A stretch of DNA of 64,000 nucleotides. Source: Patescibacteria group bacterium (GTDB lineage Bacteria > Patescibacteriota > Minisyncoccia > GCA-002772825). The stretch lies in the NCBI GenBank assembly GCA_024654625.1, contig JANLHB010000016.1:64137-128136 (forward strand), written 5' to 3'. Positions 41,456 through 53,597 of the stretch are shown one piece after another. The translations under genes were made by a program, and so were the position numbers. Within the stretch, counting starts at the first letter, position 1, and each line of letters opens with the position of its first letter. The notes below the pieces were generated by a model. It saw only the letters and a list, made by a program, of their open reading frames with translations, was not told the DNA's origin and searched no databases.

Positions 41456-41483
41456 CCCCCGCCAAGGCGGGGGTTTTAGTTTG
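41456..41483 (+). terminator. rho-independent terminator
   Basis: CCCCCGCC aag GGCGGGGG followed by TTTTAGTTT. Confidence 0.7.
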
Positions 41484-41513
41484 CTTAAATACATGCTAAT
41501 ATATAGGACTAAT

Positions 41514-44018
41514 ATGTCATTTTTATCTAAAATAAATAATAGCATTTTTAATAAGGAAAGCCCTTTACTCAAAGAAGGCCGAAATCTTGTGCTTAAAATC
41601 AACGATATAGAAATTGATATCAGTACTCTGAAAGATGAAGATCTCCCTTTAAAAACAATTGAATTAAAAGACAGAATATCAAAAGGAGAAACGCTGGATG
41701 ATATTTTACCTGATGCTTTTGCCCTAGTAAGAGAAGCGGCAAAAAGGACTCTTGGACAGAGGCATTATGATGTTCAGTTATTAGGCGGTATAGTGCTCCA
41801 TAAAGGAGGAATTGCTGAGATGAAAACAGGAGAAGGTAAAACTCTTGTTGCCACTCTTCCTGCATATCTTAACGCACTCTCTGGAAAAGGAGTTCATGTT
41901 GTTACTGTTAATGATTATCTTTCAAGAAGAGATGCTGTATGGATGGGACAAGTTTATCATTATCTTGGTCTTTCTGTAGGATGCATAAATCACGAATCTT
42001 CTTTCTTATATGATCCAACTCATGAAAAAAATGACTTGGATAAAGAAAGAGACGAGAAAGGAAGTTACCAAGTTGTTCATGAGTTTTTGAAACCGTGTTC
42101 CAGGAGGAAGGCTTATTCAGCTGATATAACTTATGGCACTAATAATGAGTTTGGTTTTGATTATTTGAGAGACAACATTGTCTATAATGAAAGCGAGTTG
42201 TCTCAGAGAGATTTTCATTATGCGATTGTTGATGAGATTGACTCTATATTGATAGACGAAGCAAGGACGCCTCTCATCATCTCCGCCCCGTCGGCTGAGT
42301 CAGAGGATCTTTATAAGACATTTGCTAAGATTGCCGAGAAGATGAATAGAGAGGAAGATTATGAAGTTGATGAAAAGCTTCGCGCTATATCTTTGACAGA
42401 GGAGGGGATAGATAAAGCGGAAAAAATTCTTGGTATAGGAAATATCTATACCGAGAAAGGAATTAAATATGTGCACCACCTGGAGACCGCCGTTCGCGCC
42501 AAGGCGCTCTTTGAAAGGGATAAAGATTATGTGGTTAAAAATGACGAAGTGATAATAGTAGATGAATTTACGGGGAGGCTTCAGCCGGGCAGACGCTGGT
42601 CGGAGGGTCTTCATCAGGCTGTTGAAGCAAAAGAAGGAGTTTCTGTGCAAAGAGAAAGCCGGACTTTTGCAAGCGTTACTTTCCAAAATTATTTTAGGAT
42701 GTATGAGAAGCTTTCCGGCATGACGGGAACCGCCATGACTTCAGCCGAAGAATTTCACAAAGTCTACAATTTGGATGTTGCTTCTATCCCTACGAACAAG
42801 CCTTTATTGAGAAAAGACAATGAGGATTTTATTTTTCAGACATCAGGGGGAAGGTTTAAGGCAGTGGCGGAGAAAGTGAAAGAGCTCCACGGCAAAGACC
42901 AGCCTGTGCTTGTGGGAACAGTCTCCATAGAGAGAAATGAATATCTTTCATTGCTGTTAAAGAAAGAGGGCGTGCCACACGAAGTTTTAAATGCAAAGAA
43001 TCATGAAAAAGAAGGAGAGATCATAGCCCAAGCAGGAAAGCTTGGCAGAGTGACTATTGCCACCAATATGGCCGGCCGAGGAGTGGACGTTGTCTTAGGC
43101 GGCAATCCTCCTGATAAAGAGGAACAAGAAAAAGTGAAAGAACTTGGCGGTCTTTATGTGATAGGTACAGGGCGACATGAAGCAAGACGCATAGATAACC
43201 AGTTAAGAGGACGTTCCGGCAGGCAAGGCGACCCAGGAGAGACACGATTTTATGTGTCTCTTGAGGATGACTTAATGAGGGTCTTTGGTTCGGACCGTAT
43301 TAAGTCTATGATGGGCAGGTTTGGCATCCCAGAAGACCAGCCTATTGAAAATAGATTAGTCACAAAATCTCTTGAAGCGGCTCAGACTAAAATAGAGGGA
43401 ATGAATTTTGACTCTAGGAAACATATTTTAGAGTATGACGATGTTTTAAATAAACAGAGGAAAGCTATATATTCCAGGAGGAGGAATGCGCTCTTAGGAG
43501 ATAGAGATTCTTTACTTGCTAATATAGAGGATGTTTATAAAAATTATGAGGAGTTATTTGATGTTGTTATTAAAAAAAGAGAAGAGATGGGCGACGAGTT
43601 ATTTTTTAAAAACTTAAGAATGACTATGTTACAGAATATTGATATGCTTTGGCTTGAGCATTTGGAAGCGATGGATTATGTGCGTTCTTCTGTGAGACTT
43701 CGGGCTTTCGGTCAGAGAGATCCTTTGATTGAATACAAGAATGAAGGTTTACGACTTTTCCATGAGCTTGAAGAGACAATAGATTCTAATCTGATAAAAC
43801 TTGTTCCTCATATGGGTGGGGGTGTCTTTATGGAAGAGAAGAAAAAACTTGAAGAAGTGCACAAAAGCGGCGCACTGATAGGTGGTAGCAATCCTCCCAA
43901 GGCGGATGCTCAAACTGGCAATTCCGCAAGAAGCGGAAGCCAGTTTGGCAAAGTCGGACGCAATGATCCCTGTCCGTGTGGTAGTGGAAAAAAATATAAA
44001 AAGTGTCATGGGTCATGA
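41514..44018 (+). CDS. secA: preprotein translocase ATPase SecA
   Basis: DEAD-like motor motifs (MKTGEGKT Walker A, DEIDSILIDEA), preprotein cross-linking and helical scaffold regions, and a C-terminal zinc-binding CPCGSGKKYKKCHG. The start was chosen at MSFLSKI; the track ORF begins 33 nt earlier. Confidence 0.95.
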   Translation: MSFLSKINNSIFNKESPLLKEGRNLVLKINDIEIDISTLKDEDLPLKTIELKDRISKGETLDDILPDAFALVREAAKRTLGQRHYDVQLLGGIVLHKGGIAEMKTGEGKTLVATLPAYLNALSGKGVHVVTVNDYLSRRDAVWMGQVYHYLGLSVGCINHESSFLYDPTHEKNDLDKERDEKGSYQVVHEFLKPCSRRKAYSADITYGTNNEFGFDYLRDNIVYNESELSQRDFHYAIVDEIDSILIDEARTPLIISAPSAESEDLYKTFAKIAEKMNREEDYEVDEKLRAISLTEEGIDKAEKILGIGNIYTEKGIKYVHHLETAVRAKALFERDKDYVVKNDEVIIVDEFTGRLQPGRRWSEGLHQAVEAKEGVSVQRESRTFASVTFQNYFRMYEKLSGMTGTAMTSAEEFHKVYNLDVASIPTNKPLLRKDNEDFIFQTSGGRFKAVAEKVKELHGKDQPVLVGTVSIERNEYLSLLLKKEGVPHEVLNAKNHEKEGEIIAQAGKLGRVTIATNMAGRGVDVVLGGNPPDKEEQEKVKELGGLYVIGTGRHEARRIDNQLRGRSGRQGDPGETRFYVSLEDDLMRVFGSDRIKSMMGRFGIPEDQPIENRLVTKSLEAAQTKIEGMNFDSRKHILEYDDVLNKQRKAIYSRRRNALLGDRDSLLANIEDVYKNYEELFDVVIKKREEMGDELFFKNLRMTMLQNIDMLWLEHLEAMDYVRSSVRLRAFGQRDPLIEYKNEGLRLFHELEETIDSNLIKLVPHMGGGVFMEEKKKLEEVHKSGALIGGSNPPKADAQTGNSARSGSQFGKVGRNDPCPCGSGKKYKKCHGS

Positions 44019-44068
44019 GGGAAGCCTAAAAAACCTTTAAAACCGGGAATTTAAGCCAAAAGCTCAAA

Positions 44069-44098
44069 CCCGATGTCTTACGAGACATCGGGTTTTTG
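44069..44098 (+). terminator. rho-independent terminator after secA
   Basis: CCCGATGTCT tacg AGACATCGGG followed by TTTTTG. Confidence 0.75.
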
Positions 44099-44140
44099 TA
44101 TTACCAACAGAAAGTGTCACGGGAATTAACCAATAAAAAT

Positions 44141-45737: not shown

Positions 45738-46001
45738 ATGGAAATAACACTCAAGTCCCACCGGGACTACATGAGTCGGATGCTTGGAAGCATGAGCGTC
45801 CGAGATGCCGAAAGACATTCAGGGTTTATTACAGCCCTATATGCTACCGAGGCCTTCTTAGTCGAAAGGACTCGAAAGGAATTAATTAAAAACAAGACCG
45901 ATCAGGCCCTGCTTAAAAAAGGCAAAAGCCCTGCTTTCGCAGAGCTCTCACCTATCTATGTCTTTAGCATAGCAAACCAGCCTGAAGCGGTCAATGCCTA
46001 A
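45738..46001 (+). CDS. hypothetical phage protein
   Basis: ORF with consistent strand and GC. Confidence 0.4.
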   Translation: MEITLKSHRDYMSRMLGSMSVRDAERHSGFITALYATEAFLVERTRKELIKNKTDQALLKKGKSPAFAELSPIYVFSIANQPEAVNA

Positions 46002-46806
46002 CAACATGACGGAAAAAACAACAACCAGAAAAGAGATCGTCGTGCCGCAAGTCGCCCTTCCCCAAAAGCGGGGAAGGCGACCGGCACCGCGAACCGAAGC
46101 GGTGATGCCGGCCGTGTCGGAAGCTCAAGAAAATGTCTATGAGCTTATGGATCGCAAAGACGATCAGCAGATTCTTGCCGAACTGCAAGGGAGATTCTTG
46201 GACGAGTATGTCTACGAATTCCCGCAGGACGGAAAAACGGTCACCGGCCTCTCATGGATCGGGACCAAGGAAGCGAGCCGGGAATATGGAGGCATCCAGG
46301 TCCCGCTCGAAAAATTAAAGATCATTGCCGAGGACGACAAGAGCGTCACGGTGGCGGTCGAGTCGTTTGATGTCTACACCGGCACCTCGCGGATAGGCCT
46401 CAAGCGACAGCAAAAGCACCTCCGCCTCCGAGACGGAAGGGTGCTGGAGAACCCCTTCTACTTCGAGCAAGCGGTATCCAAGGCCCAGCGAAACGCCATC
46501 AACGCGGTGATCCCATACACCTTCGTCAAAGCGTGGATTCAGCTCAAGAGAAAAGGCGCGACGCCAAAACAGATGCAGGAAGCCGAACAGCAAATCCAGG
46601 AGATCAAAGAGCAATCCGTAGATCAGAAAAAGATTCAGATTGCCGCCCTGCTCAAAAAACTCGGACACTCTCCTCAGGGTCCGGCCGAGTATCAAAAGGT
46701 CGTAAAAGACATTACTAACATAAAACTTGAGCCCCAAAACTACGATGAGGTCATCTCGCGATTGCAGATCAGCGTAGCCGAGGCCAATGGAAACGGAAAA
46801 CTATGA
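45994..46806 (+). CDS. hypothetical protein, possible single-strand annealing/recombination partner of the downstream exonuclease
   Basis: It sits immediately upstream of the Cas4-like nuclease, overlapping it, which is a typical SSAP-exonuclease pairing. No family motif was recognised. Confidence 0.4.
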   Translation: MPNNMTEKTTTRKEIVVPQVALPQKRGRRPAPRTEAVMPAVSEAQENVYELMDRKDDQQILAELQGRFLDEYVYEFPQDGKTVTGLSWIGTKEASREYGGIQVPLEKLKIIAEDDKSVTVAVESFDVYTGTSRIGLKRQQKHLRLRDGRVLENPFYFEQAVSKAQRNAINAVIPYTFVKAWIQLKRKGATPKQMQEAEQQIQEIKEQSVDQKKIQIAALLKKLGHSPQGPAEYQKVVKDITNIKLEPQNYDEVISRLQISVAEANGNGKL

Positions 46807-47711
46807 ACGGACAAACACTAACCCACGAAGCCGCCTATCCGGCGGCAGTAAAGGAAAAAGAGAAGCGGCACTTCTCGGTCTCGCAACTGCTCACTTACCA
46901 GAAGTGTCCGCTCCACTACAAATTCCGCTACATCGACGGACTCAAGATTCCGCCAAGATCGGTAATGACGCTGGGAAGCTCGGTCCATGCCGCCCTCGAG
47001 CACAATTTTCGGCAGAAGATCGAAAGCCACAAGGATCTGAAAGTAAACGATGTGCTGGATGCTTTCTCCGACAGCTTTGACTTGGCAAAACAAGAGACGC
47101 TCTGGAATAAGGATGAGAACCCATCAATGGTCAAAGACGAGGGCGTGAATCTGGTGTGCGCCTACCACACCGGCAAAGACCGCCAAGGCGAACCATTCAT
47201 CTACCGAGAGCTCAATCCCAAGACGAGGAAGTACGAAAAGAAACCCGTCAAAGCGCTGTCGCCGACCATTCAACCGCTCATGGTCGAAGAACCCTTCGAG
47301 GTGAACTTCGACAATGTGGACTACAAATTTATCGGCCGAATGGACTTGGTGGATGACAAGATGAGAATCCGAGACACCAAGACGAGCGCGAGAACTCCGA
47401 CTCAAGATCAGGTGGACACTGACCTTCAGATGACCGCCTACAGCATGGGATTCCGGGTAAAGACCGGGAAGATCGAGAAGGGACTCGTGATGGATTACAT
47501 CGTCAAAAACGGCGTGCCGAAAGTGGTCAGCGTCGCCACCAAGAGAACCGAAGAGGATATTCAGCGACTCTTGAATCTTATGGCGAGAATTGCCCATGCC
47601 ATAGATTGCGGAGTGTTCTACTGCAGTTGCAACCCGATATTCTGCAACCCGAATAATTGCGGATATTGGGATTTAGGGAACGGCAGAGGTTGCAGATACG
47701 GAATCGGGTAA
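46803..47711 (+). CDS. PD-(D/E)xK exonuclease, Cas4/RecB-like with C-terminal Cys cluster
   Basis: N-terminal FSVSQLLTYQKCP, catalytic GRMDLV.D...IRDTKTS, QMTAYSMGF (QxxxY), and four C-terminal cysteines (CGVFYCSCNPIFCNPNNC). Confidence 0.7.
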   Translation: MNGQTLTHEAAYPAAVKEKEKRHFSVSQLLTYQKCPLHYKFRYIDGLKIPPRSVMTLGSSVHAALEHNFRQKIESHKDLKVNDVLDAFSDSFDLAKQETLWNKDENPSMVKDEGVNLVCAYHTGKDRQGEPFIYRELNPKTRKYEKKPVKALSPTIQPLMVEEPFEVNFDNVDYKFIGRMDLVDDKMRIRDTKTSARTPTQDQVDTDLQMTAYSMGFRVKTGKIEKGLVMDYIVKNGVPKVVSVATKRTEEDIQRLLNLMARIAHAIDCGVFYCSCNPIFCNPNNCGYWDLGNGRGCRYGIG

Positions 47712-48310: not shown

Positions 48311-49060
48311 ATGAAAAACGGATGGGTATCAATTTGGCGTAAACTGCAACATCACTGGATATGGGATGACAGGCCCTTCAGCCGGGCCCAGGCGTGGATT
48401 GACTTGATCATGCGAGCTACGCACAAGAGCGATAAAACAGTGCTGTTTTTGAATAGGAACTTCACTCTTACCCGAGGAGAGCTCGTCACCTCGTTGCGCT
48501 TTTTAGCCAAAGAATGGGGATGGTCAAAAAACAAAGTGAGCAAGTTTTTGGATGCGCTTGCGGCCGACAAAATGATTGAAAAAAGGGACACCGCGCGGGA
48601 CAGCCAATTCACTCGGATTTTGATAGCGAATTACGGGAGATTTCAACCGCAGAAAAACGAGGAGAGGGACAGCAAAAGGGACACGCGAGGGACACGAAAG
48701 GGACAGCAAAAGGACAGGAACAATAATGATAACAATGTTGACAATGGTAACAAAAAAGATAAGCGCACGAAGGAAGCGGAATACGATACTCTTTTTGAGA
48801 TTTTCTGGAAAGAGTATCCAAACCATAAATCCAGAAAAAGAGCCCTGCAATCTTGGCATAAGTTGAAGCCAACTCCTGAACTGACGCAAGTCGTTGTCAA
48901 TGCGGTGCGGAAAGCGAGAGAAAGCCCGCAGTGGAAAAAAGATAACGGTCAGTTTATACCCCATCCCTCAACCTACTTGAACCAAGAGCGATGGAACGAT
49001 GAGTTGGAATCACCAAAAACAAAGGTCGGAAAATACGATCACTTAATAACCAAAGATTAA
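48311..49060 (+). CDS. phage replication initiation/replisome-organizer-like protein (N-terminal winged-helix)
   Basis: N-terminal W.SIWRKL..HWIW...FS..QAWIDLIM.A is typical of phage replication-initiator N-domains. It lies upstream of the DnaC-like loader. Confidence 0.45.
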   Translation: MKNGWVSIWRKLQHHWIWDDRPFSRAQAWIDLIMRATHKSDKTVLFLNRNFTLTRGELVTSLRFLAKEWGWSKNKVSKFLDALAADKMIEKRDTARDSQFTRILIANYGRFQPQKNEERDSKRDTRGTRKGQQKDRNNNDNNVDNGNKKDKRTKEAEYDTLFEIFWKEYPNHKSRKRALQSWHKLKPTPELTQVVVNAVRKARESPQWKKDNGQFIPHPSTYLNQERWNDELESPKTKVGKYDHLITKD

Positions 49061-49062
49061 AC

Positions 49063-49848
49063 ATGGAAAAAATTGAAACAACCATAAAAGAAAATCAGCC
49101 GGCCCCGCCGCCGACTGCCTGCAGGCGATGCGGGAGTTTGACTGCGCCGAAGTTTATCACGCTTCTCGGCTGGCGCCAGCAGGATCATTGCGATTCTTGC
49201 AGTGTGATTATTGCCGAAGAAAGAGAGAGGCGGGAAACGGAAACCCATAAAAAGATGACCATAGAAACCTATCTTGAACGATCCGGCATCGTTCGTGGAA
49301 TTTTGGCGCGAATGACCTTTGAAACATTCGATAACTCACATAAGGGCAAAGCGTATGAAATCGTCAAAGAATACGCCGAAGGATTCGGCCGGGAGACGAC
49401 AAGCGGCCTCATGCTTTATGGAAAAGCTGGCTCGGGCAAAACACATCTCGCGGTTGCAATAACCCGGCACATCATCGAGCAAAAACAGATTCAAGTCAGG
49501 TTTGCCCGCGTTGTCGATTTGCTGGCAGAGATCAGAAAAACCTTTAACGAGAACGAGCAGTATCGCACTGAAAACGAATCGGACTTGATAAGCCGATACA
49601 CCTCCGCGCCTCTGCTTGTCATTGACGATTTGGGCGCGGAAAAGACCACTGACTGGGTCCGCCAGATTCTGTATCAAATCATTGACGAGCGATGGATAGA
49701 GCAGAAGCCGATCATTGTTACCTCGAACCTCAACCTTGAAGAACTGGAAGCGAGGTTTGAGGAAAGGATAGCTTCCCGAGTCGCCGGCATGTGCCGGCTG
49801 GTCGAGTCCCGGGATTACGATTACCGAATCAAGAAATCAACACCATGA
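49063..49848 (+). CDS. DnaC/IstB-like AAA+ helicase loader
   Basis: Walker A YGKAGSGKTHLAVAI and Walker B LLVIDDLGAEKTTDW. There is an N-terminal CxxC...CxxC zinc ribbon. Confidence 0.8.
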   Translation: MEKIETTIKENQPAPPPTACRRCGSLTAPKFITLLGWRQQDHCDSCSVIIAEERERRETETHKKMTIETYLERSGIVRGILARMTFETFDNSHKGKAYEIVKEYAEGFGRETTSGLMLYGKAGSGKTHLAVAITRHIIEQKQIQVRFARVVDLLAEIRKTFNENEQYRTENESDLISRYTSAPLLVIDDLGAEKTTDWVRQILYQIIDERWIEQKPIIVTSNLNLEELEARFEERIASRVAGMCRLVESRDYDYRIKKSTP

Positions 49849-50078
49849 CTTTAATCACAGGAACGGAAAAACAAATCGAAGAAGGCGCGCGCGATTACTG
49901 GACGATAGAAGCGATGACGAAATACGGCGGATCGTTTGTGAAAGCTCTTGCCGAAGCGGCAAGACACGCTGACAGGCAAAACCTTGTGAAGATAAAAGCG
50001 ACATGGATCGAATACTGGACGGAGTACGAAAAGACGGGACGCGAGATGGAAGAAAAACACGAGCAAGGAAAAATATAA
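49845..50078 (+). CDS. hypothetical phage protein
   Basis: ATGA overlap with the upstream gene. Confidence 0.4.
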   Translation: MTLITGTEKQIEEGARDYWTIEAMTKYGGSFVKALAEAARHADRQNLVKIKATWIEYWTEYEKTGREMEEKHEQGKI

Positions 50079-50112
50079 AAGGTCGAAGTAAAAAATTAAT
50101 TTCAACAAAATT

Positions 50113-50337
50113 ATGTCAAGAAAAATAGGAGCGTTATGGATCAAGAAATCGCAGGACGGGAGAAATTACTTGTCCGGCGTGATCCAGGACTTAAGCGGAG
50201 ACATCAACATTGCTGTCTTCAAGAACGATAAAAAAGAAGCGGACAAACAGCCCGATTATAATATCGTGTTGTCGGAAAGATCGAAGCCGGCCCCTCAGGT
50301 CGAAGGAGCCCCGGGTCCAGACGATATCCCGTTCTAA
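50113..50337 (+). CDS. 74-aa protein ending in an SSB-type C-terminal tail (…PGPDDIPF)
   Basis: The C-terminal DDIPF matches the conserved SSB-Ct protein-interaction motif. The gene lies in the replication module and is preceded by the TAAAAGGTCGAAG motif. Confidence 0.5.
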   Translation: MSRKIGALWIKKSQDGRNYLSGVIQDLSGDINIAVFKNDKKEADKQPDYNIVLSERSKPAPQVEGAPGPDDIPF

Positions 50338-50354
50338 TGCCAGAATTGAGCGGA

Positions 50355-50408
50355 TTTGCCAAAAACCTTGCCACTTGTTTGCCCCTGTGTGCGATTCTTT
50401 GGCAAAAG
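50355..50408. repeat. three direct TTGCC(A/C) repeats at 11-12 bp phasing, nested in an inverted repeat (ATTTGCCAAAA / TTTGGCAAA)
   Basis: Read directly from the sequence between the SSB-tail gene and the KH-domain gene. Confidence 0.5.
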
Positions 50409-50480
50409 CCGACCCGTACCACCTGATAAAGAAAAAGGCGAAAGGGGCGAAAAATTAATCAACTAATTACAAAACGAATT

Positions 50481-50765
50481 ATGGAATCACAAGACAAAGC
50501 AGTATTGGAGACAATACTCAAAGCAATAGTAAGTCAGCCCGAAAAAGTATTGGTGAATCGCACGACGGATGAGATGGGCGTGTTGCTCACAGTTAAGCTC
50601 GGTGAGGGCGATGCCGGCGTTGTTATCGGTAAGCAAGGCCAGAGCATCAACGCGATCCGAAGCGTCATCAACATCGTAGGTCGAAAAAACCAAGCGAAAG
50701 TAAATGTGAAGCTCGATGTGCCAGAGGTGCGCCGAGGGACAGCGAGACCAGAATCCCATCTATGA
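50481..50765 (+). CDS. KH-domain RNA-binding protein (KhpA/UPF0109-like)
   Basis: VIGKQGQSINAIRSV is a GxxG KH motif. The size is ~90 aa. Confidence 0.6.
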   Translation: MESQDKAVLETILKAIVSQPEKVLVNRTTDEMGVLLTVKLGEGDAGVVIGKQGQSINAIRSVINIVGRKNQAKVNVKLDVPEVRRGTARPESHL

Positions 50766-51562: not shown

Positions 51563-52024
51563 ATGCCTATCCCATTAAAACTCGAAAAGTATCACAAAAG
51601 AGCTATGGAACTCCGCTACAGTGGCCGATATTCTTATGTCGAGATAGCTGAAAAACTCCAGGATGAATTCGGCAAAAAACCGAAAAAAGTGTCCTTCAAT
51701 GAAGATACGCTAAAAAATTGGTTCAGAACCGAAGGAGAATTATACGAGGTGTATCGGGAATATGAAAAAGAGCAGGACGAATTGAACAAAGAAGCATTCG
51801 ACATTATCAAGAAAGCCGGCCTAAGAGTTCGAGCCGAAAACTTTCGAATAGCCAATGAAATGCTCGTTGCCCTTTTAGGAAGCGACAATGATGCAGTGAA
51901 GCTCGGCGCCATTAAAGAATTATTTGACCGCACCGAGGGCAAGCCAACGCAGAAAACCCAGCTGGAGATAGTAAAAACTCTTGAAGATTATGCCAAAGAA
52001 TACTACGAAAGAAAAAACAGGTAG
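51563..52024 (+). CDS. putative terminase small subunit (HTH)
   Basis: It is a small HTH protein immediately upstream of, and overlapping, the large terminase. Assignment is by position. Confidence 0.45.
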   Translation: MPIPLKLEKYHKRAMELRYSGRYSYVEIAEKLQDEFGKKPKKVSFNEDTLKNWFRTEGELYEVYREYEKEQDELNKEAFDIIKKAGLRVRAENFRIANEMLVALLGSDNDAVKLGAIKELFDRTEGKPTQKTQLEIVKTLEDYAKEYYERKNR

Positions 52025-53597
52025 TGATTTATATGCCGAATGGGTTGAGATTCCCCGAAGTTTTATCGAGAGCGCTCTTCAAATCAAAACGGAAGATCAA
52101 CGGCGAATTCTTTTCGAGTTCAATAATGTTCAAAACATGCTGTATCAGAAGATTGATGCGATCCGACAGCAGAAAAAACCAGTCCGCATTATTATCTTGA
52201 AGGCCCGGCAAGAAGGCGTGTCAACTTTTACGGAAGGAATGATTTTTCAAGACACCTCTCTGAAGCCGAATGTAAATTCGTTGATTGTCGCGCATGAACC
52301 AGAATCCACTGAAGCAATATTCGAAATGTCGAAACTCTTCTACGACATGATGCCTAAATTAATCCGGCCACTAAAGCGGTATGACAACAAAAAGCAATTG
52401 GTATTTGATAATCCAGATGAAAAAGCGCGAGTCGAGAAACCGGGTTTGCGATCCAGAATAGTTATTGCTACGGCCGGCAAGGTAAAAATTGGACGCGGCT
52501 TGACCATCCATAATTTCCACGGCTCCGAAGTCGCATTTTGGAAAGACGGAAAAGAACTGATGCTCTCAGTGATGCAGGCAATACCCGATCTCCCGAATAC
52601 AATGGTCATTCTCGAATCAACTGCAAATGGGTTCGGTGGCGACGGAGAATATTTCTACAACATGGTGCAGGATGCCCGATCCGGCAAGAATGATTTTGAG
52701 CTCATTTTCTTGCCGTGGCATTTGATGCCGAAGTATTCGATACCATTCTCCAGCGAAGAAGAAAAAACAAAGTTTACTGAGACACTGGATGTTTACGAAA
52801 AAGAAATCCAGAAAAGCTTCAATCTGAAGCTCAAACAATTAAACTGGCGGCGTTGGGCGATCAAAAACAAATGTGGTGGTGATACCGATAAGTTCAAACA
52901 AGAATACCCGATCACTATCGAGGAAGCGTTCGTCGCCTCGGCAAGCACGGTAATTCCCAAACAGCACATTGAGGCCCAGCGGAAATTTATCAGAGAACCG
53001 ATTGATAAGCTGGACGGCGATGTCTTGATTTACGGGCATGTGAAAAATAATCACTATTACAGCTTGGGTGGCGATCCGTCCGAGGGCGCGGGTCGGGACG
53101 ACTCCGCATTTACGGTAATAGACAAGATGACCGGCCGGGAAGTGGCGCACTACGCCAACAACCGAATACCGCCTGACTTATTTGCCAAAAAAATGGTGAA
53201 AACAGCCGAATATTTCCAGAACGCGATTATAGTGCCAGAAATAAACGGACACGGAATTGCGGTGCTGAATGAACTGCAAAAGCTGGAATATCCGAATATC
53301 TTCCGTCAAAGATACTATGACCATACCAGTAAGCAGTGGACTCGCAGGTTGGGCTGGAAAACTACGAAGATAACGAAACCGTTGATGGTGGACGAATTCA
53401 AAGAGGGTCTGCGAGAAGAGGAAATTGGGATGTCGTCTGCCGCGACTGTAGGTCAAATGCTTACTTTCGTTCACACCAACGAAGCCGGCCATCATGGCAT
53501 GGGAGCTGAAACCGGCCAGAAAGATGATCGCCTTATTTCGGCCATGCTCGCATGGCAAGGATTAAAAGACCTTCCATCGGAATTTATATATGACTAA
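51981..53597 (+). CDS. terminase large subunit
   Basis: The Walker-A variant ILKARQEGVST fits the KxRQxG(K/V)S terminase signature. The size and downstream structural genes are consistent. Confidence 0.65.
   Translation: MKIMPKNTTKEKTGSDLYAEWVEIPRSFIESALQIKTEDQRRILFEFNNVQNMLYQKIDAIRQQKKPVRIIILKARQEGVSTFTEGMIFQDTSLKPNVNSLIVAHEPESTEAIFEMSKLFYDMMPKLIRPLKRYDNKKQLVFDNPDEKARVEKPGLRSRIVIATAGKVKIGRGLTIHNFHGSEVAFWKDGKELMLSVMQAIPDLPNTMVILESTANGFGGDGEYFYNMVQDARSGKNDFELIFLPWHLMPKYSIPFSSEEEKTKFTETLDVYEKEIQKSFNLKLKQLNWRRWAIKNKCGGDTDKFKQEYPITIEEAFVASASTVIPKQHIEAQRKFIREPIDKLDGDVLIYGHVKNNHYYSLGGDPSEGAGRDDSAFTVIDKMTGREVAHYANNRIPPDLFAKKMVKTAEYFQNAIIVPEINGHGIAVLNELQKLEYPNIFRQRYYDHTSKQWTRRLGWKTTKITKPLMVDEFKEGLREEEIGMSSAATVGQMLTFVHTNEAGHHGMGAETGQKDDRLISAMLAWQGLKDLPSEFIYD

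Follow-up and report, generated by a model that had tools for sequence, protein, structure and literature searches.

Bacterial single-stranded DNA (ssDNA)-binding proteins (SSBs) generally conserve the acidic C-terminal tip (SSB-Ct) [DE][DE][IL]PF. The phage gene sak4 usually adjoins ssb, and stimulation of Sak4 annealing requires the C-terminal six residues of that SSB (PMC5928155). Red-beta binds the SSB-Ct peptide as well (PMC6393309), and the matching of SSB tails predicts the portability of RecT and guides its choice (PMC13490951). A 2010 paper called the 141-amino acid (aa) SSBs of Thermotoga the smallest known bacterial SSBs (PMC2964679). DUF736, in turn, is known as a backbone gene (msi110) of the integrative and conjugative elements (ICEs) of Mesorhizobium (PMC8627217). 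Here we describe a 74-aa protein that combines a DUF736-type domain with an SSB-type tail. It is encoded on the forward strand at positions 50113-50337 of a 64,000-nucleotide stretch of a Patescibacteria group bacterium (GenBank assembly GCA_024654625.1, contig JANLHB010000016.1, positions 64,137 to 128,136), hereafter the window. We read it, with a probability of roughly 60%, as a miniature, non-canonical phage SSB that is dimeric, would bind ssDNA and would engage host or phage partners through a host-type tip. This reading is the most likely one because the protein family sits where phage SSB genes normally sit.

Single-repeat DUF736 domain and acidic tip

The gene is a complete coding sequence that opens with ATG and closes with TAA at 50335-50337; its stop-to-stop frame opens at 50092, which makes 50113 the first start codon. 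The translation (74 aa, MSRKIGALWIKKSQDGRNYLSGVIQDLSGDINIAVFKNDKKEADKQPDYNIVLSERSKPAPQVEGAPGPDDIPF) has the C-terminus PGPDDIPF, and its N-terminus (MSRKIGALW) is kept among the homologues. No other open reading frame (ORF) in the 64-kb window ends in [DE][DE][IL]PF, and the amino-acid composition of the window predicts 0.0016 ORFs of at least 60 codons with such an end by chance. The identical protein (P0001) is deposited at NCBI as 'MAG: DUF736 domain-containing protein [Patescibacteria group bacterium]', MAG standing for metagenome-assembled genome, and a protein database search returned 78 close homologues. The initial annotation of this DNA, which had proposed a 74-aa ORF with an SSB-like tail at these positions, is therefore borne out by the translation, the homologues and the low chance expectation.

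An AlphaFold2 model built on a 28-sequence alignment divides the protein into three parts. Residues 1-55 (50113-50277, forward strand) form an all-beta domain with strands at residues 6-12, 18-26, 29-37 and 49-53, modelled with a predicted local distance difference test score (pLDDT) of 79-89 and corresponding to one DUF736 repeat. Residues 56-69 (50278-50319, forward strand) make up a disordered linker rich in Pro, Gln and Gly (RSKPAPQVEGAPGP), with no secondary structure and block-mean pLDDT values of 54-66. The acidic SSB-Ct-type tip, DDIPF, occupies residues 70-74 (50320-50334, forward strand) and is conserved across the homologues; residues 55-74 as a whole were modelled at low confidence and without structure. 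The protein matches Pfam PF05284 (DUF736) with 30.2 bits, above the gathering cut-off of 22.1 (E=4.5e-7), and the best-matching stretch spans positions 13-47 of a model that has 99 positions and two repeats. By this match, it is a half-size, single-repeat member of DUF736. The layout is that of a classical SSB, with core, disordered linker and acidic tip, on a core roughly half as large as an OB domain. The ~65-aa N-terminal part had been considered too short for an OB-fold at the outset. It is indeed too small for the core of the canonical SSB family (PF00436), but the folded part measures about 55 aa and is followed by the 14-aa linker and the 5-aa tip.

Eleven positions (G6, W9, G22, F36, N38, K41, P47, D48, I51, S54 and E55) are invariant across the 28 homologues. 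W9 is invariant in 122 of 122 family representatives as well, and the F, N, K and PD are nearly so. The invariant aromatic and basic residues W9, F36, Y49, K4 and K41 are candidate contacts for ssDNA. Essentially all close homologues keep [DE][DE]IPF at the C-terminus (more broadly, [DE][DENQ][IL]PF), while the linker is free in length and sequence: from the last PDY-like motif to the C-terminus we counted 13-103 residues, with no conserved sequence. Judged by this pattern of conservation, the tip is a genuine SSB-Ct-type tip under selection. The earlier proposal of a canonical SSB-Ct tail is upheld accordingly, the tip being kept in homologues down to ~50% identity while the linker varies. 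Within the longer linkers of 13 of 224 proteins (P0058-P0060, P0062-P0064, P0067, P0080, P0094, P0104, P0113, P0167 and P0222) we noted a second short, (D/N)DFF(G)-like motif, which may be an extra docking motif and is absent from the window protein.

Profile comparisons gave one hint about the nature of the fold. Sub-threshold matches to the OB-fold family PF01336 recurred on strands 1-3 in 10 of the 122 representatives, with E=0.0033 for the window protein and a best value of 1.2e-5 for P0079 (25.6 bits; cut-off, 27). PF01336 was the sole family other than DUF736 to be matched more than once in this set, and these recurrent matches are the only hint, at the level of sequence profiles, of a nucleic-acid-binding fold. 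The window protein itself had no match to PF00436 in the Pfam scan and none in the NCBIfam scan, and a PDB sequence search with the family profile returned nothing.

Host-type tails and rearranged relatives

A profile search of 1.84 billion representatives recovered 3,129 clusters (defined at 50% identity) at E<=1e-3 and 435 at E<=1e-10; the 149 representatives that we examined share at most ~50% identity pairwise. The search for similar SSB-Ct-tailed small proteins in other phages, suggested initially as a check, thus uncovered a large family with a conserved tip. The exact end [ILVMA]P[FWY] is present in 73 of the 149, with a mean of 2.9 acidic residues among the six residues ahead of it, and 14 carry near-motifs at the C-terminus. 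DUF736 (PF05284) was matched by 114/122 representatives at E<=0.01.

In some phages, the tail is a near-exact or exact counterpart of the host's. The proteins of Klebsiella phage VLCpiS6a (tail SEPPMDFDDDIPF), Erwinia phage Y2 (gp18; SEPAMDFDDDIPF) and Vibrio phage VP2 (NEPPMDFDDDIPF) share the C-terminal pattern (S/N)EP(P/A)MDFDDDIPF, and 10-12 of the last 12 residues of these enterobacterial and Vibrio phage relatives are identical to the E. coli SSB tail (EPPMDFDDDIPF). Published binding studies have used the stretch MDFDDDIPF as the E. coli SSB-Ct peptide. The VLCpiS6a protein aligned to residues 132-178 of E. coli SSB (1eqq_A) with its last 12 residues identical and the linker aligned too, and a PDB sequence search with this protein returned SSB entries only, matched through linker and tip only. 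Given such identity to host-type tails, the Klebsiella, Erwinia and Vibrio phages appear to have joined the linker and tip of the host SSB to the small domain. The match of the tip, and in the Klebsiella phage of the linker too, suggests that the 3' end of a host ssb gene was captured by recombination.

The domain itself has been duplicated and permuted. Among the representatives listed, 12 carry tandem domain duplications, several of them with the tip; two-domain versions include P0079, P0084, P0117, P0120, P0145 and the SSB of Vibrio phage VP2. Tandem relatives span positions 25-97 of PF05284, and P0117 was modelled as a compact eight-strand unit (pLDDT 89-97; predicted template modelling score, 0.71) with a disordered tail that ends in DDDIPF. 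In the circular permutants, which have the form M..GALFKNDKKE..HPDY.G....W.SAW.K.SK.GK.FMS...DDDIPF, strands 3-4 precede strands 1-2. The profile hidden Markov model (HMM) of the family (A1) detects them at 6e-9 to 2e-6, and their alignment to a doubled target domain runs over its junction with a score of 95, versus 72-77 when one copy is used and 23-25 +/- 5 with shuffled sequences. Permuted relatives are present in 77 GenBank phage records, and versions with the same acidic tip were also seen at loci L021, L022, L024, L025 and L048-L050; L024 bears two adjacent family copies, one of them without a tail. The tandem and permuted forms suggest that the working unit contains two half-domains, and the single-repeat window protein would probably dimerize. 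We also entertain, at somewhat less than even odds, a broader proposal: the DUF736 repeat may be a previously unrecognized minimal ssDNA-binding module, a four-strand, OB-like half-unit that acts as a dimer, tandem or permutant.

Three variants stand apart. P0065 (72 aa, on a 743-bp contig) fuses half of a family protein to a fragment of Pfam SRP_SPB (PF02978), and P0076 (77 aa, on a 418-bp contig) does so to a fragment of ribosomal protein S20 (PF01649); both contigs are very short and the fusions are probably assembly chimeras. The third, P0077 (loci L006-L008), is a divergent member with the tail ...EDLGEF and no IPF tip, encoded after a 613-aa protein without an assigned family. The small element that carries it also bears two integrase-like genes and a NikA-like gene and may be a non-phage integrative or mobilizable element.

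Gene neighbourhoods and the prophage

We compared the surroundings of the family gene in loci (numbered L) drawn from IMG/VR, MAGs and GenBank. Wherever a neighbour could be named, the gene is part of a replication or recombination module. It follows a Sak4-like annealase and an exonuclease in L004/L037, L012, L014 and L036-L045, and an Erf-like annealase in L017 (after a Mu Gam-like gene), L021, L024, L025, L048-L050 and phage C75C1; in the Rhodobacteraceae phage OP947162 it is two genes upstream of the Erf-like annealase. In L022, it follows a Sak-like annealase and a RecE-like exonuclease, and in L010, L018 and L020 it adjoins an exonuclease. A DnaD-like gene, with or without a DnaC-like gene, precedes it in the window, L001, L005 and L033-L035, and in L001, L005, L034 and L035 the DnaD-like gene is immediately 5' of the homologue. 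A DNA polymerase gene adjoins it in VLCpiS6a and VP2. One small partner gene beside three unrelated annealase families (Sak4, Erf and Sak/Rad52-like) is the known pattern of phage ssb genes.

Four complete family-bearing phage genomes (OP947162, MW202697, ON602731 and OQ984151) encode varied sets of helicases, primase, DNA polymerases, annealases and exonucleases, and no second SSB is annotated in any of the four. The idea of a minimal phage SSB, raised in the initial annotation, fits this genomic context, in which the family gene occupies replication and recombination modules and is the sole SSB-like gene of the four complete genomes. In VLCpiS6a (ON602731; L028/L031), the family gene sits between genes for DNA polymerase and adenylosuccinate synthetase, an arrangement that recalls the PurZ/DpoZ cluster of 2-aminoadenine (Z-genome) phages. 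The family matches also include Vibrio phiVC8 and Acinetobacter SH-Ab 15497.

These observations can be accommodated in the following model. The ~55-aa four-strand domain would represent half of the two-repeat DUF736 fold, and a homodimer, or possibly a higher oligomer, would be the functional unit. The dimer would bind the ssDNA generated by the phage exonuclease and that exposed at forks started by the DnaD- and DnaC-like proteins, while the short disordered linker would present the acidic ...DDIPF tip of the host SSB type. The tip could then recruit proteins that read SSB tails and hand over the ssDNA to them. The partners that we infer for it are host factors (the Pol III chi subunit, primase, PriA and RecO are candidates) and/or the annealase, exonuclease and loader of the phage.

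The gene belongs to a prophage that starts directly 3' of secA (41481-44018), with the junction at 44019-44100. The G+C content is 0.31-0.42 (mostly ~0.35) before base 44,000 and ~0.45-0.52 just past secA. Related but different prophages lie directly after secA in other Patescibacteria assemblies (L001, L002 and L034), including an Azambacteria genome. Because related prophages occupy the same position elsewhere, we regard the junction as a true integration site rather than an assembly chimera, and the position after secA resembles a conserved hot spot for integration. Within the window, neither a tRNA gene nor an integrase gene is visible. The phage genes on the forward strand encode, in order, a metalloprotease-like protein, a 270-aa protein, an exonuclease, a DnaD-like protein, a DnaC-like protein, a 77-aa ORF, the DUF736-type protein, a KH-domain protein, a ParB_N protein, a large ORF and a Dam-like methylase. 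None of the prophage genes scanned between 44 and 56 kb matched an SSB family in Pfam, PHROG or NCBIfam.

The recombination module comprises a PD-(D/E)XK (Cas4/RecB-like) exonuclease (46803-47711; PF12705, 1.8e-23; phrog_69, 4.3e-18), whose gene start is overlapped by that of the 270-aa protein (45994-46806; phrog_3657, of unknown function, 1.2e-10). Judged by its position, the latter may belong to an undescribed family of single-strand annealing proteins. It has no Pfam domain, no PDB relative and just 7 homologues in 5.8 billion proteins; a homologue is encoded at the equivalent position in L034. Replication genes follow, for a DnaD-like initiator or loader (48311-49060; phrog_270, 5.6e-31; phrog_2514, 5.8e-27) and a DnaC/IstB-like helicase loader (49063-49848; PF01695, 4.8e-19; phrog_50, 2.8e-66). 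The initial annotation placed the small gene right after that of the helicase loader, but the called 77-codon ORF (49845-50078) stands between them; it overlaps the loader gene at an ATGA and has no Pfam, PHROG or PADLOC family.

Downstream, a KhpA/KhpB-type KH-domain RNA-binding protein (50481-50765; PF13083, 9.4e-18) is encoded between the DUF736-type gene and the ParB_N gene. Unusually for a gene of a phage, it lacks a PHROG match; the Harrisonbacteria copy (L033) carries it too. The large ORF (51981-53597) is in the terminase position, and related prophages again have relatives of it next to ParB. The 143-nt gap that follows the DUF736-type gene (50338-50480) holds a perfect 9-bp inverted repeat (TTTGCCAAA / TTTGGCAAA, 34 nt apart). 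We found no promoter or terminator consensus in the gap and its RNA fold is no better than that of shuffled sequences (z = -0.5), on which grounds we dropped it as a regulatory element.

Competing readings and comparison with known systems

Several observations weigh against an SSB function and bear on the alternatives. The N-terminal domain is nearly neutral (9 Lys/Arg versus 8 Asp/Glu). Structure prediction, suggested at the outset as the way to decide between OB-fold or not, delivered the four-strand beta domain described above; Foldseek, however, gave no solved relative, with no PDB match at E<0.001 for either the monomer or the tandem model (best E, 0.6 and 0.2). The domain is therefore not demonstrably an OB-fold, and every PF01336 match lies below the Pfam cut-off. 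The motif is missing in 56 of the 149 representatives, some of which are fragments, and in 6 others [ILVMA]P[FWY] is followed by 1-2 extra residues after the Phe. Classical SSB-Ct binding uses the terminal carboxylate, and residues beyond the Phe should weaken it. For the window protein, the match of the tip to its host is presumed from the general conservation of SSB tails and not from the SSB tail of this host. Searches with tblastn and phmmer for a canonical SSB, using E. coli SSB and B. subtilis SsbA as queries, found none in the window or in 26 loci. This is a weak check, as the positive control failed: the same phmmer search misses the known SSB of phage HK620, and the result therefore excludes close PF00436-type SSBs only. 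Our literature search found no paper reporting ssDNA binding by a family member or by DUF736, nor any on DUF736 function or on this phage family. Finally, the 'SSB' labels that PHROGs and GenBank give to the permuted relatives may derive from the tail alone; the note for the VP2 protein cites similarity to the V. cholerae SSB.

The alternative that survives best, though we consider it unlikely, is an SSB-tail decoy or adaptor, which the initial annotation had also raised. The domain would oligomerize or bind a phage protein instead of ssDNA, and the tips would titrate or redirect the partners of the host SSB. ExoI, RecJ, RecQ, PriA, Ung and the chi subunit have been considered as targets, with phage DNA ends being protected or host factors diverted, a scheme to which we attach the same low likelihood. 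It keeps some weight because the domain has no solved relative and its PF01336 matches are all sub-threshold. The very small size of the protein and the near-neutral charge of its domain would suit such a role, as would the absence of a solved nucleic-acid-binding fold in the Foldseek search. So would the prominence of the tip, which is the most recognizable functional element and an exact copy of the host tail in Klebsiella, Erwinia and Vibrio phages. Yet the N-terminal domain is itself strongly conserved across more than 3,000 clusters, and the lack of a recognizable tip in 56/149 representatives suggests that the domain has a function of its own. Moreover, the family gene is the sole SSB-like gene in phages that have their own primase, helicase and polymerase, whereas a decoy would be expected beside an SSB and not in place of one. 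No PADLOC match was obtained for the protein, its neighbours or its relatives, and we rejected a defence or anti-defence role.

An annealase-specific accessory, or recombination mediator, is a less probable explanation. The domain would bind the annealase or exonuclease, and the tip would bridge it to ssDNA coated with host SSB or to SSB partners. In most loci the gene does adjoin annealases and exonucleases directly, and contacts between SSB tails and annealases have precedents (PMC5928155, PMC6393309). However, the adjoining annealases come from three unrelated families, and at some loci the family member adjoins just a DnaD-like gene or a DNA polymerase gene. Specific binding to every such neighbour is not to be expected of a single conserved domain of 55 aa; ssDNA is their common denominator. 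More doubtful still is another nucleic-acid role, such as a regulator of the early/late switch that binds double-stranded DNA or RNA and whose tail is merely SSB-Ct-like. The gene has the replication genes on one side and those for the KH-domain, ParB and terminase proteins on the other, and DUF736 has no known function, both of which are compatible with a regulator. Against it, the tail equals the host SSB tail in 10-12 of the last 12 residues in several phages, the Klebsiella protein aligns across the linker too, and the place beside recombination genes is conserved in unrelated phages. Small size is all that speaks for a chance ORF or motif, which is excluded by the chance expectation of 0.0016, the 78 close homologues, the 3,129 clusters and the conserved motif.

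The SSB concept and the SSB tail are already known, and permuted relatives already carry the 'SSB' label in PHROGs and GenBank; the non-permuted subfamily does not. In the literature that we searched, we found no description of the minimal DUF736-type core, of its permutations or of the link to DUF736. If the domain binds ssDNA, it would represent a new SSB core of very small size, distinct from both the classical OB-fold SSBs and the gp2.5 type. If the DUF736 repeat is a minimal ssDNA-binding module, the 74-aa protein would rank with the smallest known SSBs, and phages would have repeatedly grafted the linker and tip of the host SSB onto the module. DUF736, which has no known function and is a backbone gene of conjugative elements, would gain a testable one, and more than 3,000 clusters that are almost all named 'hypothetical' or 'DUF736' could be annotated. 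On the same view, ICEs and plasmids would use their DUF736 backbone genes to make ssDNA-binding proteins for conjugative transfer; a tblastn search with a tandem member found no DUF736 on plasmids. The host-identical tails show phages staying compatible with the host SSB interactome by swapping linker and tip only, a point that bears directly on how annealases and SSBs are paired for recombineering in non-model hosts (PMC5928155, PMC13490951). For phages of Patescibacteria, the protein would represent a likely replication or recombination component in otherwise poorly annotated genomes.

Among the closest described proteins are the annotated small phage 'ssDNA binding' proteins, such as those of phrog_18154 and phrog_7364, Y2 gp18, the VP2 SSB, VLCpiS6a UVX29626 and C75C1 WJE88149. 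They share with the window family the motifs FKNDKK...PDY and (A/G)W.K..K.G..(Y/F).S, the variable linker, the acidic tip and the gene neighbourhoods, and are circularly permuted relative to the window protein. Both phrog_18154 and phrog_7364 carry the annotation 'single strand DNA binding protein', and the permuted relatives match them at 1e-15 to 1e-16. The window protein has no match to either PHROG, and 4 of the 122 non-permuted representatives match them weakly; one non-permuted relative, from L020, matches a PHROG of the small phage 'SSBs' at 2.6e-6. In our literature search we found no experiment behind the 'SSB' label of the permuted relatives.

Other phage SSBs offer analogies of context or layout. 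The HK620 SSB is encoded beside sak4, as is the family gene in L004, L012, L014 and L036-L045, and its C-terminal hexapeptide, NDYPPF, is needed for annealase stimulation (PMC5928155). It is, however, a 195-aa protein of unrelated sequence to which the family HMM gives no significant match. The T7 gp2.5 and Enc34 ORF6 SSBs (DUF2815; PMC5686142) are also phage-specific, lie outside PF00436 and have an unstructured acidic C-terminal segment, but they are larger and built on a variant of the OB-fold. The window protein has no Pfam or PHROG match to DUF2815 or gp2.5-like families and no Foldseek match to the gp2.5 or Enc34 ORF6 structures. We also rejected a dimeric PC4/Whirly-like ssDNA binder, which combines a four-strand sheet with an alpha-helix, on the grounds that no helix is predicted for the window protein or in the tandem model. 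Whirly-like Foldseek entries (SsgA/B and MRP1/2) had template modelling scores of 0.22-0.24 and E>0.8.

Canonical SSBs (PF00436; E. coli SSB, PDB 1eqq) have the same organization as the window protein, with a folded core, a disordered linker rich in Pro, Gln and Gly and an acidic [IL]PF tip with a terminal Phe, and the same niche beside phage annealases, as in the Sak4-SSB precedent (PMC5928155). They differ in the core, which is a five-strand OB barrel of ~110 aa in the canonical proteins and a four-strand domain of ~55 aa in the window protein. DUF736 (PF05284), which the window protein matches above the cut-off, is likewise found on mobile elements whose DNA has single-stranded stages. The Pfam model comprises two repeats, whereas the window protein has one and adds to it the linker and tip of an SSB.

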